DNA from: an uncultured Pseudomonadales bacterium
Lineage (GTDB): Bacteria > Pseudomonadota > Gammaproteobacteria > Pseudomonadales > JAUIET01
DNA: 64,000 bases
Direction of reading: 5' to 3'
Assembly (NCBI GenBank): GCA_964544755.1
Contig: CAZJDL010000001.1
Location: 5,512-69,511, forward strand
Shown here: one piece after another, positions 10,748-58,049 of the stretch
Numbering within the stretch: position 1 is the first letter of the stretch
How the letters are laid out: every line of letters begins with the position of its first letter
Translations under genes and position numbers: made by a program
The notes under the pieces: model-generated
The model's database searches: none
Told to the model about the DNA's origin: nothing
Seen by the model: the letters and a program-made list of their open reading frames with translations, nothing else

Positions 10748-10781
10748 CCTAGTGCACTGTAACGAATAAACTGCACACTAG
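10748..10781. repeat. 34-bp inverted repeat, left copy (CCTAGTGCACTGTAACGAATAAACTGCACACTAG)
   Basis: It is the exact reverse complement of 16690-16723. It starts 1 nt after the TAA of the upstream gene and ends 13 nt before the stop codon of the last gene of the bracketed operon. Confidence 0.95.
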
Positions 10782-10794
10782 AAACCGCGCGCGA

Positions 10795-11613
10795 CTAGTC
10801 AGTCGGCACTGCGCGGATCGGTTTACCGGTATACTCGATATCGTCGCAGCGCAGTGGCAAGAAGGAGCCCTGCGGGCGATCGATATTATCGACGTAACAG
10901 GCTTCAATACCGGAACTCACAATCGCCGCAGAAACATTTTTTAATTGCTCGGGGCTAAAACCCTGATCCGTACCGAAGGCGGCGACGACGCCATTCATAT
11001 TCATTTGCTCGCCATACTGCGCGCTCAAATATGCTTCGATTTCTACCGCCAGCTTCTCATAGGGGCCGATAGGAAAACCCAGTTCACGCGCGTAAGCCCA
11101 TAGTATTTCCACCCGCTCGTCGCCTTTGACCAGTGGCCGGGCGAAGCCGGTGATATTGGGCCGACCTCTTCTTCGAGAGACTTCAAGCTCCACAATTTCT
11201 TTGACCGGCATTCCTTGCAGGCGCTTCGCGTAGGCGGAATGGAGGAATTCGCAGCCTTTCAAAATAGTGCCGCCGCCGTAGACTTCGGAGTAGGCTGCTT
11301 GGATACCGGCCGCTATCGCGGCTGCGTCCGGGCAATTTGCCTCCCCCCCCAGGGCGCCAATCTGGTTACACCATATTCTGGAGTCAGGCCAACTTTGAAA
11401 AATAAAAACCGCTTCTATCCAGTCGGCAATCTTTCGTTCCGGCATTTTTCCGGTCACATTTTGCACATGAATCTGCATGTAGGAATACTTCCCAATCACG
11501 CCATCCAGCAAATTAAGACCGTACGAAAACGCGCCCTTACCGAGTATCCAGCCGCCCGCGGCGCTGTAAACGTTGTTTCTGCGCTGATCCCAATAGTCGG
11601 TTTTATTCGGCAT
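10795..11613 (-). CDS. divergent citryl-CoA lyase / citrate-synthase-fold protein, paralog B
   Basis: Start set at MPNKTDYW, overlapping the stop of the upstream paralog by 11 nt. Residues line up by eye with the citrate synthase/ATP-citrate-lyase C-terminal module (ITGFARPLVKGDERV versus GFGHRVYKxxDPR; C-terminal LPLRCDDIEY versus RHPWDDISY). Confidence 0.6.
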   Translation of the reverse strand: MPNKTDYWDQRRNNVYSAAGGWILGKGAFSYGLNLLDGVIGKYSYMQIHVQNVTGKMPERKIADWIEAVFIFQSWPDSRIWCNQIGALGGEANCPDAAAIAAGIQAAYSEVYGGGTILKGCEFLHSAYAKRLQGMPVKEIVELEVSRRRGRPNITGFARPLVKGDERVEILWAYARELGFPIGPYEKLAVEIEAYLSAQYGEQMNMNGVVAAFGTDQGFSPEQLKNVSAAIVSSGIEACYVDNIDRPQGSFLPLRCDDIEYTGKPIRAVPTD

Positions 11614-12436
11614 TTTCGGTCTCGATGTGATAGTGATCATCGGCGGGAAACGGCACCGATGTGATCGGTTTGCCGACCAGTTCCATGCCATGCGCCAATA
11701 AGCCAGGCGCCGAACACAACTGGTATAGCCCCGCACCCGTCTTGGGATTAAAGCCGAGGTCACATAACACGGCGGCAAACAGCCCGGTTGGCAGCCAACC
11801 TATATTGGCGTGTCGCAGTCCAGCGACGAAACCGGCTGCCCAATGCATACACCCGCCAGCGCCCGGTAACGCCATCAGTGTGTTGGCGATTTTGCCGGTC
11901 AAGGGGTCGATACCATCAAACAAACGGCCAAAGCCGGGCACGCCTATCTCGCTACCGGGGTCAAGCCGGCTAGCCATGGTTGCGGCAAGCTGTTCCGGAT
12001 CGTCGCGGTTGTTGCGTACAATAAAGCGCATCGTCGGCAATACATCCTGCGCACCGCAATGTTCGCCGGCGAGAATTGACAGCGATATTGGCAATATCAA
12101 GGCGGGATCGGTTTTGCCAACAGCAGCTAACACTGCGGCGCGCGTCGCGGGGTGACGCGGACCCGGCGACATAAAGGCCACCATCAGGCAGCCAAACAGT
12201 TCGGCCTGTGCTTTATTTGGCAGCTCGCCGCGAAACAATAAGTAAACCGTATCCGAGAAACTACGTTTGCGTACCAGGTCAAGCAGATTGTAACCGTGGC
12301 AAAAGGCGTTTTCGGTTAAGTAGCTGTTTTCGGGATCACGTTCTTCAAGCCAGATTTTGGTCACCGTTTTTTTGGTGAAGGACTCGTCGCGTCGTTGAAT
12401 TTTCCGGGCTGGTGGTGCGTCGGCTTCGCTACTCAC
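11603..12436 (-). CDS. divergent citryl-CoA lyase / citrate-synthase-fold protein, paralog A
   Basis: GTG start with GGAG 8 nt upstream. Shows the HGYNLLDL...YLLFRGELP motif typical of citrate synthase N-terminal regions, then LMVAFMSPGPRHPAT, LAGEHCGAQD, VPGFGRLFDGIDPL and APGLLAHGMEL, in the same order as the ACLY/CCL motifs. Confidence 0.6.
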   Translation of the reverse strand: MSSEADAPPARKIQRRDESFTKKTVTKIWLEERDPENSYLTENAFCHGYNLLDLVRKRSFSDTVYLLFRGELPNKAQAELFGCLMVAFMSPGPRHPATRAAVLAAVGKTDPALILPISLSILAGEHCGAQDVLPTMRFIVRNNRDDPEQLAATMASRLDPGSEIGVPGFGRLFDGIDPLTGKIANTLMALPGAGGCMHWAAGFVAGLRHANIGWLPTGLFAAVLCDLGFNPKTGAGLYQLCSAPGLLAHGMELVGKPITSVPFPADDHYHIETENAE

Positions 12437-12455
12437 AACGGTTGCTCCTGAAGAG

Positions 12456-14663
12456 TTATTGGTTCAGACGGTAACTGAACTCGGCGAATATCGCTCTGCC
12501 TTCAAGACGGTAATCACCAGGTATTTCTTCGACCGGGGCGGCACTGGTAGCACCCCTGCTGGGCGCGAAGGCGTCTTTATCAAACACGTTGCGCGCCACG
12601 ATAGCGAATTCCAGGTTCTTGAACAATTTCTTACGGCGTAAAACTACATCAACAAGCGCATAGTCATCAACATCATCGCGCTGGTCCGATGCCGCTCTAT
12701 CTCTATCGGCCACCCAATTCGCGGTGGTACTTAAACTCCAGTCTGGCAGAAAATTCCAGGTCGCGGCCAGATACAACTGCCAGCCCGGCGCGTCTGCCAC
12801 GTGGTCACTGGTTGACCTATCTTCGCTGTGTTGCCACGCATAGTTGCCATCCAAAGAAAGAGAGTCGCTGGCTTTCCAGGAGTATTCAACTTCAAAACCA
12901 TAACCGTCCTGGTCAACTGCATTTTTGGCTTGCAGTACCCCACCCGCTGTTGCAGGCGCTACAAAACGGATCAAGTCCCGCATCCGGTAGGTAAACAGGT
13001 TGAGCTTGATATTCGATGTTGGCGTTGGCAGATAATCGAAGGCAAGTTCGATCGTGTCGATCATTTCGGGGTCTATGTTTTCATCACCGTGCAATACCGG
13101 GTTGGTTTCCGATAGTTCCAGAAAAGAGGGTGCCCGAAACGCCCGGCCGTACAGTAACTTCGAACTCAGGTTATAGCTGGTCGCCCACACCAGGGCCAGC
13201 CGCGGGTTGATTGTGCTGCCAAAGTCAGAATAGTCGTCGAAGCGCACACCGGCGGTAAGGCGCCAGTCATTGGCCAGCGCCCATTCGTCCTGCAAGGATG
13301 CGAACAAAATATTACGCTCACTGTCCTCGACAAACACGCTTTCGAAATTGGACGTATCAGTCAACGTACCATCGACGCTGGTTTCGTTCCCGTCGAGCAC
13401 GCCGGGGCCAAAATTTCTGGTTTCTTTCGGATCGCCTTCCTGGCGCTGGAAGCCCGCGGAAAACCGCAGTTTATGTTTGTCCCAGCCGGAATAATAAGTG
13501 ACAAGCTCTGCTGTGTGCTTTTGTTCCTCCCCACCGGGGTTACCTAAAACGCCATCCGGAAACGCCACCACTCGGGAAGCAGGAGGAAGTGAGGTGGTTA
13601 AACTCCCCGTCTCGTTATCAATCAAGGCAAGCGTTCCAGCCGGCAATAAGGTGTATTTGTTATCTGAGTCGAACAGGCTCAATGAGAGGCTCGTTTCATA
13701 ACGCCAATTTTCCGACAGCTCGTCATTGTAGGCCAGCGAAAAAAGATAATAATCGCCGTTTAGCTCACCGCCGGGATCGAGCGCATGCAAAACGCCATCG
13801 CCGACTCCCGTATCGTTTTGAACCCACGCCAGGAATGACGTTTTCCAGTGTTCGTTGTTTAATGCGATGCGGGCATTCAAAATATCGTAGCGCGTAGCAA
13901 GAGGGCCAGGCGCGTTGGAGGCATTGATGCCAAAAGCGCTGTCCCCGAGTGTTTGCAGGTCTGCATCAACAATACGATCGTCATCGCCGTTGCTTTTTGC
14001 ATATTCCAGGCTGGTGGAGAACTGCCATGTATCACCCACTGCGCCGCCAGCTTGTAGCCAGTAATCTTGCTTGTCGAATGACCCATAGCGTACGCCGGCT
14101 TCAATACCGTCGATGTCCGAAGGGCTTTTTGAGATGACATTGATGACCCCGGCAAACGCGTCGGCGCCAAAAACGGCCGAGCCGGGGCCGCGGATGATCT
14201 CGATGCGCTTGATATTTTGCACCGGCATGGTAAATCCGGTCGGCAGGCCACCGTTGAAGACTTGCCGGAGTGGAACACCGTCGATCAACAGCAAAACCTG
14301 CGGGTTTTGCGCCGTATGAATGCCACGAATGGAATAAACCGAACTGAGTACGTTATTGCTGGAGAGTGACACATGCAAGCCCGGCACCATTTCCAGCGCC
14401 TCTTGCAAATTGGTTGCGCCGCGATTGCGAATGTCGGCCTCGCTAACGACGCTGGCGATAGATGGCGCCAACCTGATCGACTGCTCCGTGCCGGTGGAGA
14501 TGCTGATCGTCTCGTCGTCGCCGTACAGCTCCAGCAAATCGTCTTCGTCAAAATCCGAGTATGCGTGAGCAGGCACAAGGCCGAACAACGCAACAATTCC
14601 CGTTAGCAGGATTTCACGGGTACGCTTGCCGACCGGCAATTGATCATAAAATGAGCGACTCAT
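12456..14663 (-). CDS. TonB-dependent outer-membrane receptor
   Basis: Signal peptide, TonB-box-like DETISISTG, plug domain (IEIIRGPGSAVFGADAFAGVINVISK) and a long beta-barrel. It lies 19 nt upstream of paralog A. Confidence 0.88.
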   Translation of the reverse strand: MSRSFYDQLPVGKRTREILLTGIVALFGLVPAHAYSDFDEDDLLELYGDDETISISTGTEQSIRLAPSIASVVSEADIRNRGATNLQEALEMVPGLHVSLSSNNVLSSVYSIRGIHTAQNPQVLLLIDGVPLRQVFNGGLPTGFTMPVQNIKRIEIIRGPGSAVFGADAFAGVINVISKSPSDIDGIEAGVRYGSFDKQDYWLQAGGAVGDTWQFSTSLEYAKSNGDDDRIVDADLQTLGDSAFGINASNAPGPLATRYDILNARIALNNEHWKTSFLAWVQNDTGVGDGVLHALDPGGELNGDYYLFSLAYNDELSENWRYETSLSLSLFDSDNKYTLLPAGTLALIDNETGSLTTSLPPASRVVAFPDGVLGNPGGEEQKHTAELVTYYSGWDKHKLRFSAGFQRQEGDPKETRNFGPGVLDGNETSVDGTLTDTSNFESVFVEDSERNILFASLQDEWALANDWRLTAGVRFDDYSDFGSTINPRLALVWATSYNLSSKLLYGRAFRAPSFLELSETNPVLHGDENIDPEMIDTIELAFDYLPTPTSNIKLNLFTYRMRDLIRFVAPATAGGVLQAKNAVDQDGYGFEVEYSWKASDSLSLDGNYAWQHSEDRSTSDHVADAPGWQLYLAATWNFLPDWSLSTTANWVADRDRAASDQRDDVDDYALVDVVLRRKKLFKNLEFAIVARNVFDKDAFAPSRGATSAAPVEEIPGDYRLEGRAIFAEFSYRLNQ

Positions 14664-14791
14664 TGTTGCTTGTTATCACCCCCGTGACGCATCATTTTTT
14701 ACGATAGCGAGCTACTGGGAAAACCAGGTACTCTTTTCAAGAGAGTATAAATATAGTCGATATTCTACAATTTGCTTATAAAGACGAGTTT

Positions 14792-16669
14792 TTAGTGCAT
14801 TTTTTGCAATACTCTGAGCCGTTCCCCCATCGGTGGCGCTTCCTCAGGGTCGATATAAACGTCTATAACGCTTGGCTTGCTCGATTTTAACAAGGCGCAG
14901 AAATCGATTTGGCCCAGGTCATCGGGAGTTTTGACGCGAATGCCGTTTGCTCCCATCGCAATGGCCACCGCCGCAAAATCAATCGCCGGCAGGTACTGCC
15001 CGACCTGCTCACCGCCGCCAAGCCGCTGCCCGTGTTTGACCATACCGAGTGATTGATCATTCAACACGATGAATAGCACCGGCAAGTTGTGCTCAACGGC
15101 AACCGTCAGCTCCTGGCCGCTCATCAACATGCTGCCATCGCCGGTGATACACACGGTCGGCGCCTTGCGGCTGCCTAACGAGGTACCTACGCTGGCGCCA
15201 ATCGCCCAGGCCATCGAACCGTAACCCATTGCGGTACGCACGGTGCCGACAAATTTACGTTGCAGATAATGCAGCCCCCAACACCACGCATTACCCGCGT
15301 CCAGCAGAAACCGGGTGTGGTTCGGCAAGACATGGGCCAAATCGTACATCAAACGTTGTGGTTTAAGCGGCACGGCAGCGGATAAGCACAGCTCGGCTTT
15401 GTCATAGGTAAGTTGCGTAGGTAGCAGGTCGGGCGCTAACTTCACCAGCCCTTTAGCTGCAGGCGGCGTTTCGTCAACGGCATGCAATAGCACCGTGGTG
15501 GGTTTGTGTCGCGGTACAACCCGCAGCAATTTACCAAACACCGCCTTGAGATTGCCGAACACGTGCAAATAGGCCATCGGCGACTGCATGAAGTTTTCGG
15601 CACAGCTTTCGACATGGATGAGCCTGTCGTTCAGGATAACGTTGTCCCAACCCGCCGTTGCAATCTCACTCAGCCCGGTGCCTATGGCGATAACGTTCGC
15701 GACGTCGGATCGTTCCAGGGCGGCGCGCGCGCTGGCATGTCCCGCCAAGCCAAAAACGCCGCGGTACTGCGGATGATAAGCATTGACCCATTGCTTGCCG
15801 CCAGGTGTCGCAACGATTAATGCGTTAACCGCTTCGGCGAGTTGAATAATTTCATCGATCGCTTCGCCGCAGCTTTCGCCGATGAGAAACACCGGCCGCT
15901 GCCGCGCGCGCATGGCATTTAACAAGTCTGTTTCCAGTTGCGCGACCGCCCGCTGGTCGATAACCGGCGGCGAGCGCAGCTGAGTCGCAACGTTAAAGAA
16001 GGTGGGCACAGCAACGATCGACCCTTTAAGGATATCTAACGGGATGCTCAAATGCACCGGCCCGCGCGGCTGGCTGAAGGCGCTGATCAACGCGCTGACC
16101 AGCTTGCTTTCCAACTGCGAGGGATGCGACACCAGCGAATTGTAGCGCGTACAGTGCTCGAACATACCCACCACATCGATGGCATCGCTGGACGACTCCT
16201 GCAACCCCAGCCGGCCAAAATTGGGTAAAGCGATTTGCGGCGTGATCACCAACATCGGAATGTGATCGGCATAGGCCGATGCGACACCGGTCAACAAGTT
16301 GGTGCTTCCTGGGCCCGTGGTCGCGCAGCAAACCGCGAGCTTACCGGTTTCACGCGAGTAGCCGTCGGCCATAAAGGCAGCACCGGCTTCATGGCGTGCG
16401 AAAACGGGCGTCGGCCCATGCCGCGAGCGCTTGCTTTTGCGCGCCAGTGCCCGCTGACCATAATTGATCGTGGCCAACCCGGCACCGCGTTGCTTCCTGG
16501 CTATCGCATCAAAAAACGGTTCTATCGCCCCACCTTGAATACCAAAAACATACTCCACACCTATTTGCGCGAGGTACTCGACGATAAGGTCAGAGTAGGT
16601 GTGATTGGTGGCCGCAACGGGGTTTTGCTGAAGTGCATTTTGCAAAGCTTCTACTACATTATCAGTCAT
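14792..16669 (-). CDS. thiamine-diphosphate-dependent enzyme, acetolactate synthase large-subunit-like
   Basis: PYR domain with the catalytic-Glu motif RHEAG, GPGSTNL, and the ThDP-binding GDGS...NDQ motif. GGAG lies 8 nt upstream of the ATG. No ALS small subunit is adjacent. Confidence 0.85.
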   Translation of the reverse strand: MTDNVVEALQNALQQNPVAATNHTYSDLIVEYLAQIGVEYVFGIQGGAIEPFFDAIARKQRGAGLATINYGQRALARKSKRSRHGPTPVFARHEAGAAFMADGYSRETGKLAVCCATTGPGSTNLLTGVASAYADHIPMLVITPQIALPNFGRLGLQESSSDAIDVVGMFEHCTRYNSLVSHPSQLESKLVSALISAFSQPRGPVHLSIPLDILKGSIVAVPTFFNVATQLRSPPVIDQRAVAQLETDLLNAMRARQRPVFLIGESCGEAIDEIIQLAEAVNALIVATPGGKQWVNAYHPQYRGVFGLAGHASARAALERSDVANVIAIGTGLSEIATAGWDNVILNDRLIHVESCAENFMQSPMAYLHVFGNLKAVFGKLLRVVPRHKPTTVLLHAVDETPPAAKGLVKLAPDLLPTQLTYDKAELCLSAAVPLKPQRLMYDLAHVLPNHTRFLLDAGNAWCWGLHYLQRKFVGTVRTAMGYGSMAWAIGASVGTSLGSRKAPTVCITGDGSMLMSGQELTVAVEHNLPVLFIVLNDQSLGMVKHGQRLGGGEQVGQYLPAIDFAAVAIAMGANGIRVKTPDDLGQIDFCALLKSSKPSVIDVYIDPEEAPPMGERLRVLQKMH

Positions 16670-16689
16670 TGGCTGCTCCAGGTAAAAAG

Positions 16690-16723
16690 CTAGTGTGCAG
16701 TTTATTCGTTACAGTGCACTAGG
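16690..16723. repeat. 34-bp inverted repeat, right copy (CTAGTGTGCAGTTTATTCGTTACAGTGCACTAGG)
   Basis: It is the exact reverse complement of 10748-10781 and lies 21 nt upstream of the ThDP-enzyme start codon, next to its Shine-Dalgarno sequence. Confidence 0.95.
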
Positions 16724-17138
16724 GCCTGCTAACACTATTTTCATCATTATTGCCGGAGACCATTTTTCGGCCACCCAGGCAGAAGGAGCGAGCTGTAGTG
16801 ACTCTACATAAGCGATTGATAACGCCGCTGGGCGAGAAATGGTTCCGCCCCTGCGGATTGCGCCTGCTGCTTCTTATCCTCGCCAGCGGCATGCCGCAAG
16901 CTGGCTTATTCTTTTCGTTTAAAATTAATTTTTGGTGACAAACTGCGGCGTGGCCACAACAAGGGCGAGCATGGTATCGTTCGCATTTAGAATAGTCACT
17001 TCGTATCACTAAAGTTTAACAAGATTAAACAATCTACAAGATGGCGGCTAAAAACCATACAAGACAGTCGGCAAGCGCGGAATGCCGAAGTTTTTCACCC
17101 TCAGAATGAGGTAAGTCCCGGATTATTGGCTAGACTGT

Positions 17139-18167
17139 ATGGATACTTTTGTCGTGATGTGCCATCGCGCAGAACCTCCGGCCCCAGGAAAAGCGTTGTT
17201 TGTGAATTGCTTTTGTTCACGCCTTACTCGCATCGTTAAGCATTTAACGTGGTGGAGGCTGCTGTGCTGCGCTTTGTTTTTTGCGTTGACGCAACCTGCG
17301 TTTGCCGCACCGCTGAAATTCGCCGTTGTTGTGCCTGAAACCGCAAGCAAAGCGCAGGTCATTTATGACGAAATCGTACAGGGCCTACGCAGCGCGGAAA
17401 ATGTTGAGCTAACGCTTTACCGGCTCAGCAGCGCCGCGAAGCGCGACGAAGCGGCAGTGCACAAATGGTTAAGCGGGCAAAACGCGAATGCCGTAATCAG
17501 CATCGGCAGGAACGCACATAACCTGGTAAAAAACTTCGCCACTGATATACCGCTTATCGCCGGCGGAATATCCATTTCGCCAAACCACACCTCTGGCGTC
17601 AGCCTGACCGGCGATCCACAGGAGTTTTTCAAAAACCTGGTGCGAATTGCACCCAAGGTCGAACGGATTTTTCTGATTTACAACAATGCGATCAATGGCT
17701 GGTGGGTAGATTCAGCACGCGCCGCCGCCAGTGAACACAACATAGATCTGCAAGCTTTGCAGGCGGAAGACGTAAAGTCAGGCGCCAAATTGTATCAGCG
17801 CGTATTGAACGGCGCGCGTTCGGGAAAGGACGCCATATGGATTCCGTTAGTCAGTATTGTACCGTCAAAAACAGTACTGCCAATGGTACTGAGGAAGGCA
17901 TGGGAAAAAAACCTCGTGGTATTTACCAATAGCGCGGCCCATGCCCGACAAGGCGCTTTATTCTCGATGTATCCCGACAATGTGGCACTGGGTGAACAGT
18001 TGATAGAGCTGGCCATCGAGCAAACGACAACCAGCGGCGCCAACGTCAGGGTGGCGCCGGTCAAAAAATTGAAAACGGCTTTCAACTTACGCACGGCGTC
18101 CCACCTGGGACTGAAATATTCGTTACGGCGGGGCGGTGGTTTTGACCGAATTTATTCAGCACAGTAA
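17139..18167 (+). CDS. periplasmic ABC-type substrate-binding-like protein (likely sensor partner); start uncertain
   Basis: Signal peptide (WWRLLCCALFFALTQPAFA/AP) followed by a binding-protein-like fold. It overlaps the downstream histidine kinase gene by 32 nt. The true start may be an internal GTG or TTG. Confidence 0.55.
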   Translation: MDTFVVMCHRAEPPAPGKALFVNCFCSRLTRIVKHLTWWRLLCCALFFALTQPAFAAPLKFAVVVPETASKAQVIYDEIVQGLRSAENVELTLYRLSSAAKRDEAAVHKWLSGQNANAVISIGRNAHNLVKNFATDIPLIAGGISISPNHTSGVSLTGDPQEFFKNLVRIAPKVERIFLIYNNAINGWWVDSARAAASEHNIDLQALQAEDVKSGAKLYQRVLNGARSGKDAIWIPLVSIVPSKTVLPMVLRKAWEKNLVVFTNSAAHARQGALFSMYPDNVALGEQLIELAIEQTTTSGANVRVAPVKKLKTAFNLRTASHLGLKYSLRRGGGFDRIYSAQ

Positions 18168-30917: not shown

Positions 30918-30956
30918 TGCGTGTGTAGAGGTCGCCGCGACGGCGAGCTGCGCGTT

Positions 30957-31140
30957 ATCCTAGAAACCGCAGTTGGATCACGAAAGTATGCGCCAGCTCT
31001 TAATGCGCATGGAAAATTCGAAAAAGCTCTCATCACCAATAAGGTGACCACGAGTTTTTCGAATCTCCCATGCACATCAAGCTTTTTATATGAATCAAGA
31101 GGTGCACATCTTTTTCGCGCCCAACTGCGGTTTCTAGGAT
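30957..31140. repeat. 184-bp hairpin-forming MITE-like element with 20-bp perfect terminal inverted repeats
   Basis: ATCCTAGAAACCGCAGTTGG at 30957-30976 is the exact reverse complement of CCAACTGCGGTTTCTAGGAT at 31121-31140. The interior is an imperfect palindrome centred near 31045. No ORF with a ribosome-binding site is present. Confidence 0.85.
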
Positions 31141-32222
31141 TATGCATGCAGCGCAGCAGCCAACGTTTCCTGCAGAAGTTGCGCGTCGAAGTCTTCGGTC
31201 ACGATAGCTCGGCCCAGTGCTACTGGCAATACCAGCCGCAGGCGGCCATTCAGCACCTTTTTGTCGACCTGCATGGTGTCCCGAATCTGCTCCAGATCTA
31301 ACTGTCGCGGCACCGCGACCGGTAGCTCGGCTGCCACCAGCAATGCGGTTATTCGGTGCTGGTCTACGGTGCTCAACAGCCCCATTCGATGCGCAAGGTC
31401 GGCAGCTAACACGGTACCCATCGCCACCGCTTCACCGTGCAACACGCCCTGGTACGCCATACAAGTTTCAATGGCGTGGCCAAAAGTGTGGCCCAGATTG
31501 AGCACCGCGCGGCAACCCTGCTCTCTTTCATCTTCGGCGACTATAGCGGCCTTGGTCGCGCAGGAACGATGGATAGCATGCACCAGCGCCGCCTGGTCGC
31601 GCGCGACCAGGGCTGCCATGTTCGCTTCCAGCCAGGCAAAGAATTCAAGGTCGGCGATCACACCATATTTGATCACCTCGGCCAAACCAGCAGCGAATTC
31701 GCGCGCAGGCAGCGTCGTCAGCGTTGCCGTATCGACAATGACGCAACGCGGCTGGTAGAACGCGCCCACCATATTCTTACCCAGTTTGTGATTGACCGCC
31801 GTTTTGCCACCCACCGACGAATCAACTTGCGCCAGCAAGGTGGTAGGCAGCTGAATAAAGTCCACTCCACGCTGATAACAGGCAGCGGCAAAACCGGTCA
31901 TATCGCCCACTACACCACCCCCCAAGGCTATTAATGTGGTGCTGCGGTTATGTTTATCAATCAGCAGTCGATCGAAAATAGTATTCAGATGCTCAAGGTC
32001 TTTGTATTTCTCGCCGTCAGGCAGACACACCGTAGACACAGCGCAGCCGTCGAAGTGCGCTTGCACCGTAGAGAGGTACAGCGGCGCTACCGTTTGGTTG
32101 CTGACGATCAATAGCTGTCGACCGCGAACATGGCGGCGCAACAGTTCGGCTTGCTGCAGCAGATCCGCAGCAATATAGATTGGATAACTTCGCGTTCCGA
32201 GTTCTACGCGCAATTCCCGCAT
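31140..32222 (-). CDS. aroB: 3-dehydroquinate synthase
   Basis: Full-length AroB-like sequence. Start trimmed to [17 protein letters not shown], which aligns with the E. coli AroB N-terminus. Confidence 0.9.
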
Positions 32223-46659: not shown

Positions 46660-47295
46660 ATGGCGCAGGATTTTGCCAAACGGCGTAGCAATAATGGGCG
46701 CCGGGCAAAAAAAGGGGGTAACTCGGGCCCGATATGGCTGGTCACCGGCCTGTTGTGCGGCTTCTTTCTGGCCTTTTTGCTGCAGCTGGCCGGCGTAAGC
46801 CTGGTGCCAAATAACGCCGACCGCGTGGCCGCCCCCGTAGCGGATTCAGAGCTGAACACCACGAATCAGGAACGAGGACAACCCGCAAAAAAACCGCGCT
46901 TCGAGTTTTATGCCCTGCTGCCGGAAGCGAAAGTGGAGGTGCAGGAAGAAGCGGAAGTTCCGGTTGCGGAGTCCTCTTCGAGTACGGCGCTGAAAAACAC
47001 CGAACAAAGTAAGCCATTGGCAAGCACCCGACGAGACACGCCAGCCACCAACGCTACCCGGTATGTTTTACAGGCCGGATCGTTTAAAAGCCACAGCGAT
47101 GCCGATCGACTGCGCGCCAGGTTATTGTTGATGGGACTTGAAGCCAGTATCGAAAAGGTCAGATTAAGCGGCACCGACAACCGCCACCGGGTGCATGTGG
47201 GTCCGTTTGTGGCGCGCGCGGAAATGCTTGATGCCCGCAAGCAGCTAACCAAGGCTCGGATAGACACGCTGCTGCTGGAACGCAAGATTCGCTAG
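46660..47295 (+). CDS. SPOR-domain membrane protein (FtsN-like position)
   Basis: N-terminal basic region plus a TM segment, a linker, and a C-terminal SPOR domain (YVLQAGSFKSHSDADRLRARL). It lies between argS and hslV. Confidence 0.75.
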   Translation: MAQDFAKRRSNNGRRAKKGGNSGPIWLVTGLLCGFFLAFLLQLAGVSLVPNNADRVAAPVADSELNTTNQERGQPAKKPRFEFYALLPEAKVEVQEEAEVPVAESSSSTALKNTEQSKPLASTRRDTPATNATRYVLQAGSFKSHSDADRLRARLLLMGLEASIEKVRLSGTDNRHRVHVGPFVARAEMLDARKQLTKARIDTLLLERKIR

Positions 47296-47443
47296 TGTAC
47301 CGTAACGAGTAAAGTGTACCTAGCAGAAGTCATCAAAGTCAGTGCACTAGGAGGCTGCTTGAAGCTGGCAACCGCAGTGGGATCATGAAAGTATGCACGC
47401 GCTCTTAATGCACATCTTTTCCGCACCCAACTGCAGTTTCCAG
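47292..47443. repeat. composite intergenic repeat: CTAG-hairpin module (47292-47323), GTGCACTAG fragment (47342-47350) and a short form of the MITE-like element (47365-47443)
   Basis: CTAGTGTACCGTAACGAGTAAAGTGTACCTAG aligns with the 34-bp repeat at 10748. Positions 47365-47443 align with both ends of the 30957-31140 element, with about 100 bp of its centre missing. Confidence 0.8.
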
Positions 47444-47548
47444 GTTGAAATTTGCCATCCGCGACCCATATTTTACAGTTAACGATTGTTTTTGCATTCG
47501 CGGCAACTAAATAGCGCCGCAACAGATTGACTAGAAGAGGCTCTATAC

Positions 47549-49410: not shown

Positions 49411-49415
49411 CGCTA

Positions 49416-49796: not shown

Positions 49797-49843
49797 GGCC
49801 TTTGCTTTATGGGTGACCTACTTTTTATGGATGGCATAAGGGC

Positions 49844-50593: not shown

Positions 50594-51225
50594 TGACAGA
50601 CCCCGCACTGCAAACCGCCGCGCTCGGCAGCCTTGAATTTGTGATCAACAAAGCACTGCAGCTCGACCCCGGCACCAGCGCGCGGCTGGCTGCCATGCAA
50701 GGTCTGACGCTAAAAGTAGAATGCACCGCGCCCGCATTTACTGTGTACGTGCAGCCTGGAGAGCAAGGACTGCGCCTGAAAAGCTGGAACGACCTGGTGC
50801 CCGACAGCGGCATCAGCGGCACCTTGTCTGAATTTACTCGGCTATTGCAGGCGCAAGACAAAGCCTCGGCATTGGTGAACGGCGCTTTCCGGATCAGCGG
50901 CGACAGCGGCCCGCTGTTGCAATTACAGGAAATACTGGTGCAACTGGAGATCGATTGGGAACAACCCATAGCGCGATTGCTAGGCGATGTGGCCGGCCAT
51001 CAGGTGGGCAAGTTTATCCGCGGCTCGCTGGCTTGGGGCAAACACGCGTCCGGCAGTTTGCAGCGCAACGTGGAAGAGTTTATCCACGAAGAGGCGCGCT
51101 TGCTGCCGCCACGGCTGGAACTGGAAAACTTCTATGCTGATGTTGGCGCCCTGCAATTGCGCGTTGATCGTCTTGCCGCGCGGGTGCGTAAAACGCGGCA
51201 AAATCTAACGCCCGAAGCCGAATAA
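50593..51225 (+). CDS. ubiJ: ubiquinone biosynthesis accessory factor UbiJ (SCP2 domain)
   Basis: Lies between ubiE and ubiB, with an SCP2-like N-terminal region. Confidence 0.7.
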
Positions 51226-51226
51226 C

Positions 51227-52858
51227 GTGCGCGGGCTGCGGCGCTTAAGCAAAATAATTCGGGTAACGCTGCGCTACCGGCTCGATCTGCTGCTCAATAC
51301 CAGCTCTCTGCCCTGGCATATCCGCACCCTGTTGCTACCGGCCCGGGCGTTCCCGGCCGGCACGCTCGGCCGCGGCCAACGCATCCGCCTGGCACTGGAA
51401 GAGCTGGGCCCGATCTTTATCAAGTTTGGGCAAATGCTGTCGACCCAACCCGACCTTGTTCCGGCCGACATCGCCGAACAACTCAGCGAGCTGCAAGACA
51501 ATGTGGCGCCGTTTGATGAGGCGCTGGCGGCGGCGACTATCGAGGCGGCGCTAGAACAAAAAATAAGTACCGTGTTCGACAGCTTTGACAGTACCCCCAT
51601 GGCTTCCGCCTCGGTTGCCCAGGTACACGCCGCGGTTTTACAGGATGGCAGCAACGTTGTGGTCAAGGTGCTGCGCCCGGGTATTGAGAAAGTGATTCAG
51701 CAGGATATTAAACTGCTGTTTTCGCTGGCGCGCCTGGTGCAGCGTTACGCCCCCGATGGCCGCCGCTTGCGGCCGCTGGAAGTGGTTAACGATTACCAGC
51801 ACACCATCATGGATGAACTGGACCTGCAGCGCGAAGCGGCCAACGCCGCCCAGTTGAAACGCAACTTCGCCGACTCGGATATGTTGTACGTACCAGAGAT
51901 CTATTGGGACTATACCCGTACTAACGTTTTCGTTATGGAGCGCATCTCCGGTATTGCCGTGACCGATGTTGCCGCGCTACGGGCCGGCAATACCAATATG
52001 GAAGTATTGGCGAAACGCGGGGTAGAGATATTTTTCACCCAGGTATTACGCGACAGTTTTTTTCATGCCGACATGCACCCCGGCAATATTTTCGTCGATA
52101 TCCAGAACCCGGAAAAACCGCGCTATATCGCCGTAGATTGCGCGATTATCGGCAGCCTTTCAGACCACGATCAGTATTATTTAGCGCGTAACTTGCTGGC
52201 AATTTTTCAGCGCGACTATCGCCTGGTCGCACAACTGCATATCGAATGCGGCTGGGTGCCCGAGAGCACCCGGGTCAACGACTTCGAGGCGGCTATTCGC
52301 ACAGTGTGCGAACCGGTGTTCCAAAAACCCATCGGCGAGCTTTCGTTTGGTCAATTACTGGTGCATTTATTCACTGTTGCACGCCGCTTCGATATGACCG
52401 TGCAACCGAGCCTGGTGCTGCTGCAAAAAACCCTGCTCAATATCGAAGGTCTCGGGCGTCAGCTGTACCCACAGCTCGACCTGTGGCAAACCGCGCAGCC
52501 GTTTCTGGAACGCTGGGTTGAGGAACGCTACGCCCCGGCCCAGGTCTTGCGACGCCTGCAACGGCAGGCGCCTTCGTGGCTGGAACAATTACCGCAAGTG
52601 CCCGATTTATTGCTAAAAAGCCTGCAGCAAAGTCAACATCTCGCCGAGCTGACCCAGCTGCAACAGCAGCAGCTGGCGCAAATGCGCAGTACCGAGAAAA
52701 AAGCCCAACGGCGGCGCTTGCTGGCCCTGGTTGCCCTGCTGGCCACTGCCGGGCTGGTGCTGCTCAACCCCGCGGCGGTGCAACTGGTGGCTGGTGACCT
52801 GACAAAGACTGGCCTGCTAATCGGCGGCTTTGCATTGGCGATCTTCCTGTTGGGGTAA
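51227..52858 (+). CDS. ubiB: ubiquinone biosynthesis regulatory kinase-like protein UbiB
   Basis: ABC1/UbiB kinase-like motifs ([22 protein letters not shown]) and C-terminal TM helices. Confidence 0.9.
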
Positions 52859-52910
52859 TGAATTTCCGGCTGTGCCATAATATAGCGCCATAAACTGATA
52901 GCACTAGATT

Positions 52911-53303
52911 ATGCTTGATACCGCATTTTTAGATGACATTAAGTGGGATGCTGGCGGACTGGTGCCGGCCATCGCGCAAGACTATCAGAACCGGCGCGTT
53001 CTCATGGTCGCGTGGATGGATCGTACGGCGCTCACAGAGACTGTGCAAAGCGGGCAAGCGGTGTATTATTCACGTTCACGACAAAAACTCTGGCATAAAG
53101 GTGAACAGTCGGGGCACGTGCAGCACGTCAGGGAAATTCGTCTCGACTGCGATGCAGACGTTATTACCTTATTAGTTGAGCAAATCGGTGGTATCGCTTG
53201 TCATACTGGCAGGGAAAGTTGTTTTTATCGCAAGCTGGAAGACGGCCAGTGGCGCAGCGTAGAACCGGTGTTGAAAGATCCAGCGCAAATTTATTCGAGC
53301 TAG
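52911..53303 (+). CDS. hisI: phosphoribosyl-AMP cyclohydrolase
   Basis: 130 aa with the GLVPAIAQD...[16 protein letters not shown] motif. Confidence 0.9.
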
Positions 53304-53313
53304 CTGATCTGCA

Positions 53314-53655
53314 ATGAACGATGTACTCCAACAGTTGACCGATATTATTCAGCAACGCATTGAAGCCGGTGATAGCGAAAGCTCGTACGTGGCCAAACTA
53401 CACGCGGCGGGTTTGGACAAGATACTGCAAAAGGTCGGCGAAGAGGCAACTGAGACTATTATTGCCGCCAAAAACGCCGAGCAATTTTCCACTAACGATA
53501 AGCTTGTGCACGAAACCGCAGACCTGGTATTCCATACCCTGGTCATGCTCGCGGCACTGGGAGTCGATTTCAACGCGGTACTGAAGGAGCTTGAGCAGCG
53601 CTTTGGCACGTCGGGTATCAACGAGAAGCAAAGCCGTGGCAAGGCCAAGAATTAA
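53314..53655 (+). CDS. hisE: phosphoribosyl-ATP pyrophosphatase
   Basis: 113 aa with SYVAKL...[13 protein letters not shown] (MazG-like HisE). Confidence 0.9.
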
Positions 53656-53672
53656 CATATCTGGAGGTTAAC

Positions 53673-53900
53673 ATGGGAATCGGTGGCATAAGCATTTGGC
53701 AACTATTGATCGTATTGGCCATTGTAGTGATGTTGTTTGGCACGAAAAGGCTGCGCAACCTGGGCAGCGATTTGGGCGAGGCGATAAAGGGTTTTCGTAA
53801 ATCCATCGTCGACAAGGAAGGCGACGCCGACCCCTTCGAACAGAATAAAGACAACGTGATTGATGGCAAAGCCGAGGAGCTCAAGGAGAACGGCAAGTAG
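53673..53900 (+). CDS. tatA: twin-arginine translocase subunit TatA
   Basis: TM helix followed by the [14 protein letters not shown] amphipathic motif. Confidence 0.92.
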
Positions 53901-53932
53901 TTCTTGCGACCTTATTCTTCTAGCTAACGCCT

Positions 53933-54244
53933 GTGTTTGATATTGGTTTTGCCGAACTACTGCTGATTGCCGTCGTCAGCCTACTGGTCATTGGCCCGGA
54001 ACAACTACCGGCCACTGTGCGCACCATCAGTCTGTGGCTAGGACGCATGCGGCGTAGCTTTAATGAGATCAAGGCCGACATTGAGCGCGAGATTGGCGCC
54101 GATGATATCAAGCGCCAACTGCACAACGAAACCATTCTCAAAGAACTGGAAAACACGCGCGCCGAATTAAGCGCTATTGCCAACGACACCGAACAAAGCG
54201 TCAAAAAAATCTTGCCAGCGGACGACTCAGATGACAAACCATGA
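53933..54244 (+). CDS. tatB: twin-arginine translocase subunit TatB
   Basis: [27 protein letters not shown]-terminus with a GTG start. Confidence 0.9.
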
Positions 54245-55026
54245 GCGATGCGGCAGTGACTGAACCTGACCCGCAAGAACCATTAAGCGAAGACAAACCG
54301 CAGCCACTGGTCGAACACTTGATCGAACTGCGCGACCGCTTGCTGCGCTGCCTGGGCATTGTATTGGGCGTGTTCGTTGCATTGTTCTATTTTGCCAACG
54401 ACATCTATGCGTTCGCGGCCGAACCGTTACGCAAATTTTTGCCGGAAGGCGCCACCATGATCGCTACCGAGGTGGCGTCGCCGTTTCTCACACCCTTTAA
54501 ACTTACACTGGTGTTGGCGGCGTTTATCAGCGTGCCGTTTATCCTCTACCAGATGTGGGCGTTTATCGCGCCGGGCATGTATAAAAACGAAAAGCGCTTC
54601 GCCGTGCCGCTGCTGGCTTCCAGCGTCGTGCTCTTTTATGCCGGCATGGCGTTTGCTTACTATGTAGTGTTCCCGCTGGTATTCAAGTTTTTTACCAGTG
54701 TGGGCCCAGAATCGGTCACGGTGATGACCGACATCAATCGCTATCTGGATTTTATTCTCAAATTATTTTTCGCGTTTGGCATCGCCTTTGAAATTCCGAT
54801 AGCGACCGTATTGCTTATTTGGTCGGGCATTACAACGCCCGAAGACCTTGCGAAAAAACGGCGCTACATTATCGTGGGTTGTTTCGTTATGGGTATGCTG
54901 CTGACGCCTCCCGATCTGATTTCGCAGGCACTGCTTGCCGTACCAATGTGGTTGCTGTTCGAACTCGGCATTGTGCTCGGGCGCTGGATCAAGCAACAAG
55001 AACCTGTGACGGACGACCAGGCTTAG
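54241..55026 (+). CDS. tatC: twin-arginine translocase subunit TatC
   Basis: Six-TM protein with an [10 protein letters not shown]-terminal motif. It overlaps the tatB stop. Confidence 0.92.
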
Positions 55027-55035
55027 GAGAAAAAA

Positions 55036-55896
55036 GTGAAATTCGGTTTAATTCCCGTCAACGTAGGCACCAAGTCGGCAGAACAAGTCGTCGGTCTGGC
55101 GCAGCTCGCCGAAGCGGCGGGTATGGAATCAGTGTGGACCTTCGAGCACGTGATGGTACCGCATGATTACAACTCCAAATATCCGTACCACAAGTCCGGC
55201 AAGATGGGCATAGAAGCAAGCACAAACTTTATTGACCCGCTGATCACGCTAGCGACAGTGGCGGCGCACACCAAAACGCTGCGCCTGGGCACCGGTGTGA
55301 ATATACTGCCGCAGTGCAATCCCCTGCTATTGGCCAAGCAAGCCGCAAGCCTCGACCTGATGTCCAACGGTCGCTTCATGTTGGGCGTCGGCATAGGTTG
55401 GCTGCGCGAAGAGTATGAGGCCATGGGGGTGCCGTTTGAACGCCGTGGCGCTCGTTTTGACGACTATGTACAAGCCCTCAAAAAAGTCTGGTCAGGCGAA
55501 CAGGTAGAACACGAAAGCGATTTTCTGCACTGGCATGGCTTTCATAGCTTCCCCACACCGGCACAAACACCACATTTACCCATTATTATCGGCGGCGCGG
55601 CCGGCAAGGTTTTCGAGCGCGTGGTGCTGCACGGCGACGGCTGGTACGCGCCGGTCGATAAGGCCGAGAGTCTGGCGCCGCACCTGCAAAAACTGCAAGC
55701 GGCATGCGACGCACACGGGCGCGACTACAATAGCATTGAAATATCGGCGATGTTTAACCCCCAAGACGGCCTGGACGGCGTACGAAGATACCAGGATCTC
55801 GGTGTTGCCCGGCTGACTGTACCTTTGCAATCGCTGGGCGAAGATCCTATTAAAGGTATTAGCGAGTTGGGAGAACAATTTATCGCGAAACTGTAG
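55036..55896 (+). CDS. luciferase-like (LLM class) flavin/F420-dependent oxidoreductase
   Basis: 286 aa with an LLM-type sequence (FGLIPVN...ESVWTFEHV...GRFMLGVGIGW). GTG start. Confidence 0.65.
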   Translation: MKFGLIPVNVGTKSAEQVVGLAQLAEAAGMESVWTFEHVMVPHDYNSKYPYHKSGKMGIEASTNFIDPLITLATVAAHTKTLRLGTGVNILPQCNPLLLAKQAASLDLMSNGRFMLGVGIGWLREEYEAMGVPFERRGARFDDYVQALKKVWSGEQVEHESDFLHWHGFHSFPTPAQTPHLPIIIGGAAGKVFERVVLHGDGWYAPVDKAESLAPHLQKLQAACDAHGRDYNSIEISAMFNPQDGLDGVRRYQDLGVARLTVPLQSLGEDPIKGISELGEQFIAKL

Positions 55897-55916
55897 ACGA
55901 TGAGAAACTTTAGCGA

Positions 55917-57953
55917 ATGAGCAACCCCTTATTAAGCAACAACGAACTGCCACCCTTTGCCGCCATCAAACCCGAGCATATTGAACCGGCGATGACGCAG
56001 CTTATAGAAGACAGCCTTGCCGCAGTCGATAACCTGCTACAGCATCAGCCAGCGCCCGACTGGGCGTCGTTGCTGCAGCCGCTGGAAAACCTCGACGATA
56101 GAATGCAGCAAGCCTGGTCACCGGTCGGTCATTTGAACGGCGTCGCGCAGAACGATGTCCTGCGCGAGGCTTACGACAATTGCCTGCCTAAACTGTCGGA
56201 ATACCATACCCGGCTGGGGCAGAACAAGGCGCTGTTTAGCGCCTACAAAACGCTAAAAGAGAGCGCACAATTCGCACGCTTGAACACGGCGCAACAAAAA
56301 GTCATCGACAACGCCTTGCGAGACTTTCGCCTCAGCGGTATCGACCTTCCGGTGAACCAGCAACAGCGTTTTGCCAATATCAGAAAGCGTTTGGCCGAAC
56401 TGGCCAGCGACTTTTCAAACAATGTATTAGACGCCACGCAAGCCTGGAACAAGCTGGTCAGCGACGAAGCCGAGTTGGCGGGCGTACCCGAGACCGCATT
56501 AAACGCCGCCGGCGTTGCTGCCAAAAACCGGGGCGCGACGGGCTTTTTATTAACGCTGGACGCCCCTTGCTACCTGGCAGTCGTAACTTACGCCGACGAC
56601 CCGGCTGTGCGCGAAGAGATCTACCGCGCTTACACTTCGCGCGCTTCCGAATTGGGTCCGAACGCCGGCAAGTATGACAATAGGGCGAACATGGTCGACA
56701 TCCTCGGCTTGCGCAAAGAAATGGCGCGGCTATTGGGCTTTGCAAACTACGCCGACTACTCCCTCGCGACAAAAATGGCGCCATCTGCCGCGACCGTATT
56801 GGGTTTTCTACGGGAGCTGGCGGAAAAATCGCGTCCAAATGCGCAACAGGAGTTGGCAGAACTGCAACATTTCGCCAGGCAACAACACGGCGCGGCCGAC
56901 CTGGCAGCCTGGGATATCGCTTACTATTCGGAAAAGCTGCGGCAACACAAGTACGCCGTTAGTCAGGAGCAGCTGCGCCCCTACTTTCCTGCCGCCAAGG
57001 TGCTTGAGGGCTTGTTCGCGGTGACCTCGCGTTTGTTCGATGTCAGCATCAAAGCTGCCGATGCGATTGAGACCTGGCACCCTGACGCGCAGGTTTTCAA
57101 CATTTACCGCAACGAGCAACTGATCGCGCGCTTTTATATAGATTTATACGCCCGTGAACACAAGCGCGGTGGCGCCTGGATGGACGAGTGCCGCGTACGC
57201 AGGAAACGTGACGATAACAGCATACAGCTGCCAGTGGCTTACCTCACCTGTAATTTCATGGCGCCTGCCGGCAGCAAACCCTCCTTGCTGACTTTCAACG
57301 AAGTAACTACCGTGTTTCACGAATTTGGCCACGGCTTGCACCATATGCTGACCGAGATCGATTGTGCAGGCGTGTCTGGCATTAACGGCGTGGCATGGGA
57401 CGCGGTGGAACTGCCCAGTCAGTTTCTGGAAAACTGGTGCTGGCAAAAGACCGTTATACCGCTGATCTCCTCTCACTATGAGACCGGCGAAGCGCTGCCC
57501 GAAAGCCTGCTAGACAAGCTGCTGGCGGCAAAGAATTTTCAGTCAGGCATGCAAATGCTCAGGCAAATTGAATTTGCGATGTTCGATTTCGAAATGCACC
57601 AGTCCGAGGATATCTGCAACGCCGATGATGTTCAGGCGCTGCTCAACGATGTTCGTCAGCGCGTTGCCGTACTGCAACCACCGCCAGAAAATCGTTTTCA
57701 ACTTAGCTTTTCGCATATCTTTGCCGGCGGCTACGCGGCCGGATACTACAGTTATAAATGGGCCGAAGTCCTCGCCGCCGACGCTTTCGCCGTGTTCGAA
57801 GAAAACGGCATTTTTGACCCCGCCACGGGTCGCGATTTTCTGACCAAGATATTGGCCAAAGGCGGCTCGATCGACGCGCTGGAACTGTTCAAAAGTTTTC
57901 GGGGCCGTGAGCCGCGGGTAGACGCGTTGTTACGGCATGCGGGTATCGGCTAG
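55917..57953 (+). CDS. prlC: oligopeptidase A (M3 family)
   Basis: HEFGH zinc motif and full-length PrlC-like sequence. Confidence 0.9.
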   Translation: MSNPLLSNNELPPFAAIKPEHIEPAMTQLIEDSLAAVDNLLQHQPAPDWASLLQPLENLDDRMQQAWSPVGHLNGVAQNDVLREAYDNCLPKLSEYHTRLGQNKALFSAYKTLKESAQFARLNTAQQKVIDNALRDFRLSGIDLPVNQQQRFANIRKRLAELASDFSNNVLDATQAWNKLVSDEAELAGVPETALNAAGVAAKNRGATGFLLTLDAPCYLAVVTYADDPAVREEIYRAYTSRASELGPNAGKYDNRANMVDILGLRKEMARLLGFANYADYSLATKMAPSAATVLGFLRELAEKSRPNAQQELAELQHFARQQHGAADLAAWDIAYYSEKLRQHKYAVSQEQLRPYFPAAKVLEGLFAVTSRLFDVSIKAADAIETWHPDAQVFNIYRNEQLIARFYIDLYAREHKRGGAWMDECRVRRKRDDNSIQLPVAYLTCNFMAPAGSKPSLLTFNEVTTVFHEFGHGLHHMLTEIDCAGVSGINGVAWDAVELPSQFLENWCWQKTVIPLISSHYETGEALPESLLDKLLAAKNFQSGMQMLRQIEFAMFDFEMHQSEDICNADDVQALLNDVRQRVAVLQPPPENRFQLSFSHIFAGGYAAGYYSYKWAEVLAADAFAVFEENGIFDPATGRDFLTKILAKGGSIDALELFKSFRGREPRVDALLRHAGIG

Positions 57954-58012
57954 GCGCTGAACCGCTAATGCCTTCTGCGCGGAAATCATTTGACTCCTAT
58001 TATTGAAGGTAA

Positions 58013-58049
58013 TGCACTAGCGTCTTGAACCTAGAAACCGCAGTGATCA
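58013..58049. repeat. partial copy of the CTAG-bounded repeat family (TGCACTAG ... CCTAGAAACCGCAGTGATCA)
   Basis: It shares the TGCACTAG end of the hairpin module and the CCTAGAAACCGCAGT left end of the MITE-like element. It overlaps the TGA stop of the Smr-domain gene. Confidence 0.65.

Follow-up and report, generated by a model that had tools for sequence, protein, structure and literature searches.

Points of comparison for the repeats reported here include Correia of Neisseria and ERIC of the enterobacteria, repeats of the miniature inverted-repeat transposable element (MITE) type that are 100-160 nt long, lie at gene boundaries and form long hairpins when transcribed. Both are found at full length and with internal deletions, and both can influence nearby promoters and mRNA; Correia duplicates TA. 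Repetitive extragenic palindromic (REP) sequences are of another kind: they are short extragenic imperfect palindromes at gene ends that carry a GTAG/CTAC head, reach hundreds of copies per genome without duplicating their target, and are linked to a gene for a REP-associated tyrosine transposase (RAYT). Among transposons, CC-tipped ends together with a 4-5 bp duplication point to the IS1380 family, and the inverted repeats (IRs) of the Tn3 family begin with GGGG. We analysed a 64,000-nt stretch of the genome of an uncultured Pseudomonadales bacterium (hereafter the window; contig CAZJDL010000001.1), in which two intergenic modules, M1 and M2, had been described as one CTAG-bounded family of six or more loci resembling REP sequences or bacterial interspersed mosaic elements (BIMEs). 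The original prediction was right that the elements are intergenic, repeated and of a mobile type, and that they do not match by chance. M1 and M2, however, have nothing in common but CTAG. The repeats probably derive from non-autonomous DNA transposons of at least two unrelated families, present as insertions and as decayed remnants and nested in one another. Counted by family, the six or more loci assigned to a single family resolve into two copies and one or two end fragments of M2, three copies and two end-like fragments of M1, and a possible 12-nt fragment of a third family (47347-47358).

M2 is, with high confidence, a MITE. A scan of species-representative genomes with the query CTAGAAACCGCAGTKGGNNNNNRAAA matched at least 90 stretches in at least 27 genomes, which bears out the expected genome-wide family, at least for M2. 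Pairing of plus- and minus-strand matches among the matches listed gave 82 elements, and all counts over 82 and 49 refer to these. The ends read CCTAG...CTAGG, and a terminal inverted repeat (TIR) of 17-18 nt, (C)CTAGAAACCGCAGTTGG, is conserved in the 82 elements. Among the Gammaproteobacteria the hosts are Halieaceae, Microbulbifer (among them the cultured M. rhizosphaerae CECT 8799), Ca. Endobugula, Cellvibrionaceae and Thiotrichales; the others are Nitrospinota, Nitrospirota and one short contig of an Acidimicrobiia metagenome-assembled genome (MAG). A complete 4.6-Mb Nitrospirota chromosome carries at least nine M2 loci, and two MAGs labelled Pseudomonadales (GCA_037969395.1 and GCA_051008535.1; HslV 94% identical to that of the window) also carry the element. 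Both are near relatives of the host, as is GCA_054017955.1. Genomes rich in M2 are Nitrospirales OY820905.2, Ca. Endobugula JBLHJR01 and CAXMRQ01. The most common length is 161 nt, with other classes at about 80, 176-198, 226-233 and 258-278 nt and longer. Forms of 30-38 nt that run from TIR to TIR only exist (L063, L085, L068; such numbers denote fetched loci), and the long forms hold nested foreign repeats or, in L053, an entire ISL3 insertion sequence.

Identical 5-bp direct repeats lie directly outside CCTAG/CTAGG in 49/82 elements, and most of the others differ at one base. No element had a 6-bp repeat at this place, and a shifted control gave none. The consensus of the repeat is W-T-N-A-W, with T at position 2 and A at position 4 in all 49. 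Because the TTGAA/TTGAA (18 cases) and TTCAA/TTCAA (5 cases) pairs are direct and not inverted, they are a duplicated target and do not belong to the TIR. M2 thus shows every feature that defines a MITE save an identified autonomous partner. These TIRs and the 5-bp duplication are the signature of a MITE moved by a DDE transposase, which is where the resemblance to REP/BIME elements breaks down. The ends, duplications and sequence of Correia and ERIC differ from those of M2, and M2 is distributed over several phyla whereas Correia and ERIC are each known from one genus or family. As far as could be checked, M2 is apparently uncatalogued. Nothing relevant was found in the literature on the TIR sequence or on MITEs in these taxa, and the one Rfam match at gathering thresholds was a TPP riboswitch elsewhere; what fell on M2 were meaningless miRNA-like hairpin matches.

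In the window the M2 TIR has five matches against 0.10 expected. The predicted M2 loci at 30957, 47365 and 58030 were all recovered, at 30959-31138, 47364-47444 and 58030-58045. The first is a full-length MITE of 180 nt (plus strand) with perfect 18-nt inverted ends CCTAGAAACCGCAGTTGG / CCAACTGCGGTTTCTAGG at 30959-30976 and 31121-31138. It is flanked by GTTAT (30954-30958) and ATTAT (31139-31143), the two copies of the target duplication, which match at 4/5 positions. Its 'A-first' end is on the plus strand, and the stabler 'B-first' RNA is read on the minus strand, the strand of aroB and of the AAA/SPOR gene. The second is a short form of 81 nt (plus strand) with an internal deletion and decayed tips (GCTGG...CCAGG), flanked by TTGAA on the left (47359-47363) and on the right (47445-47449); its ortholog in L116 is even shorter. 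At 58025-58045 (plus strand) TTGAA is followed by a truncated M2 left end, CCTAGAAACCGCAGTG, which matches 16/16 nt at 58030-58045. The nhmmer E-values were 6.5e-44 for the full-length element, 1.1e-07 and 3.6e-05 for the two ends of the short form, and 0.6 for 58030-58045. A further truncated left end is split by M1: TTAAA and the first C lie at 10743-10748, and the end resumes at 10778-10788 (CTAGAAACCGC, both on the plus strand). The fusion of an M2 start to M1 predicted here remains plausible, since TTAAA is a recurrent M2 duplication, but the 11-nt match by itself is marginal (chance probability about 0.03). Only spurious open reading frames overlap the 180-nt and 81-nt copies. CTAG is under-represented in the window (50 seen vs 71 expected), so that CTAG clusters in spacers stand out.

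An empty site was found in the spacer between the SPOR gene and hslV. A single TTGAA is present in L106, L102 and L117 (...TTGAA(A/T)TTT...), as compared to TTGAA-[M2]-TTGAA in the window, L118 and L116. At the Smr site, L106 has just 3 nt between two convergent genes. These data are consistent with a mechanism in which a DDE transposase acting in trans would recognise the M2 ends and integrate at W-T-N-A-W through a 5-bp staggered cut, which would leave the 5-bp duplication.

The apparent fusion of modules is accounted for by nesting at CTAG, so that the modular composition read into these loci reflects unrelated elements and not parts of one unit. A third family, M3, has the form CTAG|GGAGSCTGTCSGA...|CTAG and a length of 166-297 nt, with nine copies in the fetched loci (L088 764-931, 4635-4800 and 7039-7227; L038 6453-6641; L062 3339-3504; L046 6845-7141; L063 2367-2663; L020 6709-6970; L059 6618-6811). 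Its carriers are Ca. Endobugula, Nitrospirales, Nitrospinota, an uncultured gammaproteobacterial MAG and Thiotrichales. Because the flanks are unrelated, CTAG (or its TA) is duplicated. M3 sits in the CTAG tip of M2 twice. In L088 the copy at 764-931 lies inside the terminal CTAG of an M2, and its excision in silico restores the TTAAA duplication of that M2. The first M1 site of the window (site A) is built in the same way, TTAAA-C-CTAG[M1]CTAG-AAACCGC. The site downstream of the SPOR gene (site C) has the order CTAG-[M1]-CTAG-[M1-like end fragment]-CTAG-GAGGCTGC, the last perhaps being 11 nt of the M3 TIR, followed by TTGAA-[short M2]-TTGAA. The possible M3 fragment at this site (47347-47358, plus strand, CTAGGAGGCTGC) has 11 nt identical to the M3 start (CTAG|GGAGGCTGTCC...), with a chance probability of about 0.04-0.08. 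Since the M2 tips hold CTAG and each CTAG-duplicating insertion adds another, elements pile up and give the modular look; the tips would in this way draw CTAG-seeking elements.

Such behaviour has precedents. MITEPsy1 of Pseudomonas syringae, an IS5-family MITE derived from ISPsy2, inserts at CTAG/YTAA and duplicates 4 nt (PMC3189936), and IS630 targets the TA in CTAG (PMC2577343). M3 behaves like MITEPsy1 in duplicating CTAG, and M1 has the same geometry of CTAG on both sides. M1 is unlike MITEPsy1 in its 25-nt core (vs 100 nt), and it has no clear 18-nt TIR, no GG start and no sequence similarity to that element.

M1 itself (CTAGTGCACTGTAACGAATAAACTGCACACTAG) consists of CTAG, a 25-nt core and CTAG, with cores of 24-25 nt over the copies. 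All three copies are CTAG-core-CTAG with unrelated flanks. The perfect copies placed at 10748 and 16690 were found at 10749-10781 (plus strand, copy A) and 16690-16722 (minus strand, copy B), and the third, diverged copy at 47292 was found at 47292-47323 (plus strand, copy C, CTAGTGTACCGTAACGAGTAAAGTGTACCTAG). Perfect matches expected in shuffled sequence number 0, and there are 3 instances of the loop motif GTAACGARTAAA where 0.28 would be expected. Copy A sits in the CTAG of the truncated M2 tip. Copy B is the same sequence inverted, and the two are identical over 34/34 nt, so that with one flanking base they form a perfect 34-nt inverted repeat (10748-10781 and 16690-16723). Between them lies a four-gene operon on the minus strand (10795-16669), encoding a ThDP enzyme, a TonB-dependent receptor, a citrate-synthase-like protein and an unknown protein. 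Copy B is 20 nt upstream of its first ATG, that of the ThDP-enzyme gene, and copy A is 13 nt after its last stop. A transcript with both copies might pair end to end, or the DNA might invert.

A second CTAG-to-CTAG unit adjoins copy C at 47320-47350 (plus strand, 23-nt core). Its end, ...CAGTGCA-CTAG, resembles the CCTAGTGCACTG end of M1, and its 12-nt stretch CAGTGCACTAGG is identical in copies A and B; the unit probably represents an M1-type fragment that has decayed. The status of an M1-end-like fragment at 58010-58020 (plus strand, AATGCACTAGC), between two TTGAA pentamers, is uncertain. A degenerate right half of M1 had been claimed at 52889-52908. The same stretch is present in L115 (97% identical; CTAT for CTAG) and recognisable in L106 (82%), and because it is conserved in relatives it is an ancestral hisI leader and not a copy of the repeat. 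In the spacer at 6834-6869 there is a further CTAG-to-CTAG unit (CTAGCCCAATCAAACAATGGTTTAAATAAACGCTAG, 28-nt core) which shares AATAAAC with the M1 loop. It may have arisen by chance or be what is left of an M1-type copy.

M1 is present in a lineage-specific manner. Copy C is kept in L118 (98.8% identical; the right CTAG is mutated to CTGT) and absent in L116 (96.7%), which reads CGCTAG-TGTGC-TTGAA at this site and is 57 nt shorter than the window. The spacer of the more distant L106 is 5 nt, the same length as in L116, which makes the short state ancestral. L119 (93-96% identical) has no canonical copy B. The identity of copies A and B together with the absence of M1 from close relatives argues that it is a recent, lineage-specific element. 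Outside the host lineage no M1 was found in JGI metagenomes, viral contigs, plasmids, phages or any non-host locus. The sole JGI metagenome match to YACYGTAACGARTAAASTGYA was a chance match in unrelated sequence with no CTAG bounds, and the best match in the plasmid and phage searches (an Acinetobacter plasmid) was coding sequence. We also considered copies A and B as the ends of a 5.9-kb mobile cassette; this was rejected, since L119, which lacks the canonical repeat, has the same genes on either side of site B.

From the CTAG geometry, we put the chance that M1 is, whole or as a fragment, a minimal non-autonomous element with CTAG as its target at a little better than even; it would presumably move as a unit. 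It would most likely have entered at CTAG, duplicating CTAG (or the inner TA) as IS5-group and IS630-type elements and their MITEs do. It would have arisen from such an element by internal deletion down to a minimal form, or else be mobilised as one. Derivatives of the size of M1 are plausible because TIR-to-TIR forms of 30-38 nt exist for M2. The left arm of M1 is, judged by eye, loosely like the M3 TIR (CTGT..CGA..ATA.A).

M2 forms a long hairpin. The full-length copy of the window folds as a single hairpin, with RNA energies of -78.3 kcal/mol on the plus strand and -101.8 on the minus strand (z-scores -10.6 and -13.9). We aligned 39 members of the 161-nt class, for which 62 pairs were predicted. 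Alignment cells were paired in 97.1% of cases vs 88.3% in shuffles, with slid controls at 36-47%. Changes on both sides were found in 23/62 pairs, several with four pair types, and 0/500 shuffles reached the observed values. In 64/65 elements the strand starting CCTAGAAACCGCAGTTGGGCGCGAAAAAG is the more stable of the two when folded, by about 26 kcal/mol on average. G.U cells number 355 vs 14 for A.C (25:1), with 8 pairs conserved as G.U, a count inflated by prediction on the favoured strand; the strand energy comparison is free of this bias. The orientation of M2 relative to flanking genes showed no bias (13 vs 11, p = 0.84), and because orientation is random we make no claim of function at the mRNA level.

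Which transposase moves M2 can be judged from its ends and its duplication. The IRL of ISEcp1 is CCTAGATTCTACGT and its 5-bp repeats are AT-rich (PMC6061673); a plasmid copy of the element (L124) has the same IRL. IS1678, a distant member of the IS1380 family, reads CCTGAATAATTC...GAATTATTCAGG in L123 with GATAG on both sides. The tips compared are CCTAGAAACC... for M2, CCTAGATTCT... for ISEcp1 and CCTGAATAAT... for IS1678. M2 shares with this family 5'-CCT ends (CCTAGA in ISEcp1, CCTGAA in IS1678, CCTAGA in M2), short IRs (about 14-24 nt) and a 5-bp duplication. Its first six bases are the same as those of ISEcp1, whose duplication is AT-rich. Unlike IS1380 elements, M2 has no transposase gene, a tight W-T-N-A-W target and a body that is one long imperfect palindrome, and beyond the first 6 nt its IR is unrelated to that of ISEcp1. 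On these sequence likenesses M2 is rather likely an IS1380 derivative, and its transposase would most likely be of that family. A Tn3-family transposase, which would make M2 a Tn3-derived inverted-repeat miniature element (TIME), is quite improbable. TIMEs are likewise non-autonomous with 5-bp AT-rich duplications at AT-rich insertion sites (PMC4133298), and Tn3-family elements favour palindromic AT-rich targets and leave AT-rich duplications of 5 bp, sometimes 6 bp (PMC4133298; PMC2577343). But TIMEs have the conserved 38-bp IRs common to Tn3-family transposons (PMC4133298), whereas the perfect IR of M2 is 17-18 nt and its subterminal regions differ between the ends (ATCACGAAAG vs GCGCGAAAAAG), so that the 38-bp IR of a TIME is absent. 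The CCTAG tip also matches the ISEcp1 IRL over 6 nt.

The longer M2 forms were considered as autonomous parents and rejected. The 1.6-kb element of L053 consists of the MITE with an ISL3 element inserted in it; this ISL3-family insertion sequence (6207-7799) has a 424-aa transposase and the ends GGCTCTTCTCCGCTTTTGTGAGG / CCTCACGTAAGCGGAGAAGAGCC. The 587-nt and 770-nt forms (L085 1508-2094 and 2587-3356) hold other nested palindromic repeats and no transposase. In these, and in L040 and L045 (Nitrospirales OY820905.2), the M2 contains nested repeats GGGTCCGTCACGAAATAACCGGGACAATTGGCC... and the inverse, which are another MITE-like family landing in M2.

Several observations weigh against the reading of these repeats as debris of mobile elements. 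No autonomous partner with M2 ends was found in about 0.7 Mb of fetched loci or in plasmids, phages and viral contigs, and tblastn of the ISEcp1 transposase against the same 0.7 Mb gave no match. Solo M2 ends adjoin ordinary genes. The covariation and the G.U excess of M2 are not predicted by plain decay of selfish DNA. For M1, there are just three certain copies in about 83 kb of host sequence (the window plus 10 kb on each side), and the added 10 kb on each side contained no further copy of M1 or M2. The 57-nt excess of the window over L116 at site C is not exactly CTAG-bounded, and at site B L119 has a rearranged segment of similar length and no clean empty site. The inverted match within M1 is TGCA/TGCA only, with a 2-nt bulge, and there is no convincing TIR beyond TGCA. 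Because CTAG is palindromic, it could be part of M1 itself instead of a duplication.

Other explanations of the repeats were weighed. A single REP/BIME-like modular family, mobilised by a RAYT (a Y1 transposase) encoded elsewhere in the genome, would fit M1 as an extragenic imperfect palindrome of about 33 nt with copies at gene ends, which is how REPs look. It would not fit the TIRs, the 5-bp duplication and the empty site of M2, which REPs lack, nor the absence of a GTAG/CTAC head (M1 is bounded by CTAG and M2 by CCTAG). The features by which REPs are recognised were not seen in the window and the surrounding 20 kb. M1 forms only weak hairpins (DNA -3.2 to -4.6 kcal/mol, z -1.2 to -2.5), the density of M1 is low at 3 copies in 83 kb, and CTAG nesting explains the juxtaposition of modules. 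The window was said to hold no transposase, which agrees with the Pfam families listed for the called genes; none is annotated there or in the surrounding 20 kb. We consider a REP family extremely unlikely. It is also rather unlikely that M1 is a functional cis element which does not move, such as an RNA element or a protein-binding site made of two TGCAC direct repeats 19 nt apart, or that its inverted copies bracket the operon to form a 33-bp transcript duplex or mediate DNA inversion. The perfect 34-nt inverted repeat of copies A and B around the four-gene operon speaks for such a role, as does copy C, which keeps the direct repeat (TGTAC...TGTAC). Binding sites, on the other hand, are rarely identical over 34/34 nt including the loop, the third copy follows an unrelated gene, and M1 is absent in close relatives which retain the same genes. 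No recombinase is annotated nearby, and longer-k-mer assemblies show one orientation only. The original prediction took the paired change in the stem of copy C as compensatory and as a sign of selection on structure. The change is a C-to-T substitution at the same position of two direct repeats (TGCAC...TGCAC to TGTAC...TGTAC), which agrees equally with a direct repeat and with a wobble or shifted stem and is thus ambiguous. With a single variant and weak hairpins, selection on M1 structure is not supported.

The hairpin data bear on the alternative that M2 is more than selfish DNA and is selected as a strand-specific RNA or single-stranded DNA (ssDNA), for example a processed RNA element or an mRNA stabiliser. 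Covariation above shuffles, the strand energy gap and the conserved G.U pairs are what this would predict, whereas the lack of orientation bias and of an Rfam match is not. The asymmetry could also come from one ancestor, and repair can homogenise the arms of a palindrome without selection. We consider selection of this kind unlikely. There is somewhat less likelihood still in a broader model, in which the approximately 160-nt M2 hairpin would be selected on one strand as a horizontally spreading structured RNA or ssDNA and M1 would be an unusually small, CTAG-targeting mobile unit that brackets operons. Terminator and promoter scans gave nothing beyond a promoter-like site at hslV and one marginal terminator-like match (M1 plus the M2 remnant at site A).

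The elements had been thought always to abut start or stop codons, and the codon distances given for the individual copies were all right within 1 nt. This placement follows from the target sites, because the M2 targets (TTGAA, TTTAA, TTAAA, ATAAT) and CTAG contain stop codons and the CCTAG tip adds TAG. Such strings are common at gene ends in a genome of 55% G+C, and insertions within genes are selected against; with these targets, insertions would be tolerated only at gene boundaries. In the window the right duplication of the full-length M2 holds the aroB stop (TTA on the plus strand, TAA on the minus strand, 31140-31142), the TAA of the GGDEF-EAL gene is in TTAAA, and the TAG of the SPOR gene belongs to the left CTAG of copy C. 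One nucleotide separates the end of the M2 remnant at 58045 from the Smr TGA (58047-58049). Over the family, the stop of a long open reading frame lies in the duplication or tip in 10/82 elements, which makes this a tendency and not a rule. At hslVU, a promoter-like site TTGAAA-N14-CCCATAT (window 47445-47479), which we take to resemble the sigma-32 consensus, is kept in all relatives (L106 9899-9930, L102, L117). Because M2 used the promoter TTGAA as its target, the duplication leaves an intact copy beside this site, and the right duplication of the short M2 doubles as its -35-like TTGAA(A).

In kind the repeats are ordinary mobile-DNA debris, and the understanding of such elements is unchanged. 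What stands out is the cross-phylum spread of M2 with its covarying, strand-asymmetric hairpin, and the tiny size and operon bracketing of M1. M2 is now defined by its ends, its 5-bp W-T-N-A-W target, its size classes and a 39-sequence alignment, which can serve for masking and annotation and for tracing transposase transfer. It is scattered in marine and symbiont genomes of several phyla, where it interrupts assemblies, supplies stop codons and duplicates promoter hexamers. Its occurrence in Nitrospirales, Nitrospinota and Gammaproteobacteria points to recent mobile-element exchange among marine bacteria. Its covariation and asymmetry make it a candidate case for RNA-level selection on MITE hairpins.

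Further observations were made in and around the window. The window is 100% identical to ENA metagenome scaffolds and several Logan contigs. Logan contigs (k = 31) end within M1 and an ENA scaffold ends within the short M2, breaks which occur because these are repeats. The convergent spacer between the peptidase-M3 and Smr genes measures 93 nt in the window (57954-58046) vs 3 nt in the 80%-identical L106 (20454-20456), and the Smr C-termini differ. The 3' end of the Smr gene seems to have been reshaped by recurrent insertion and deletion near MITE fragments. A TPP riboswitch (Rfam RF00059, 67.2 bits) lies at 61702-61808 on the plus strand, and a TonB-dependent receptor gene (61858-63987) follows directly downstream; the riboswitch is another place where three Logan contigs break off. 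Past the window end (L107) there follow a small open reading frame, an NMN_transporter-family (PnuC-like) gene and a choline/APH-type kinase gene. From its gene content, the region from 61702 onward looks like a riboswitch-controlled operon for thiamine uptake and salvage.

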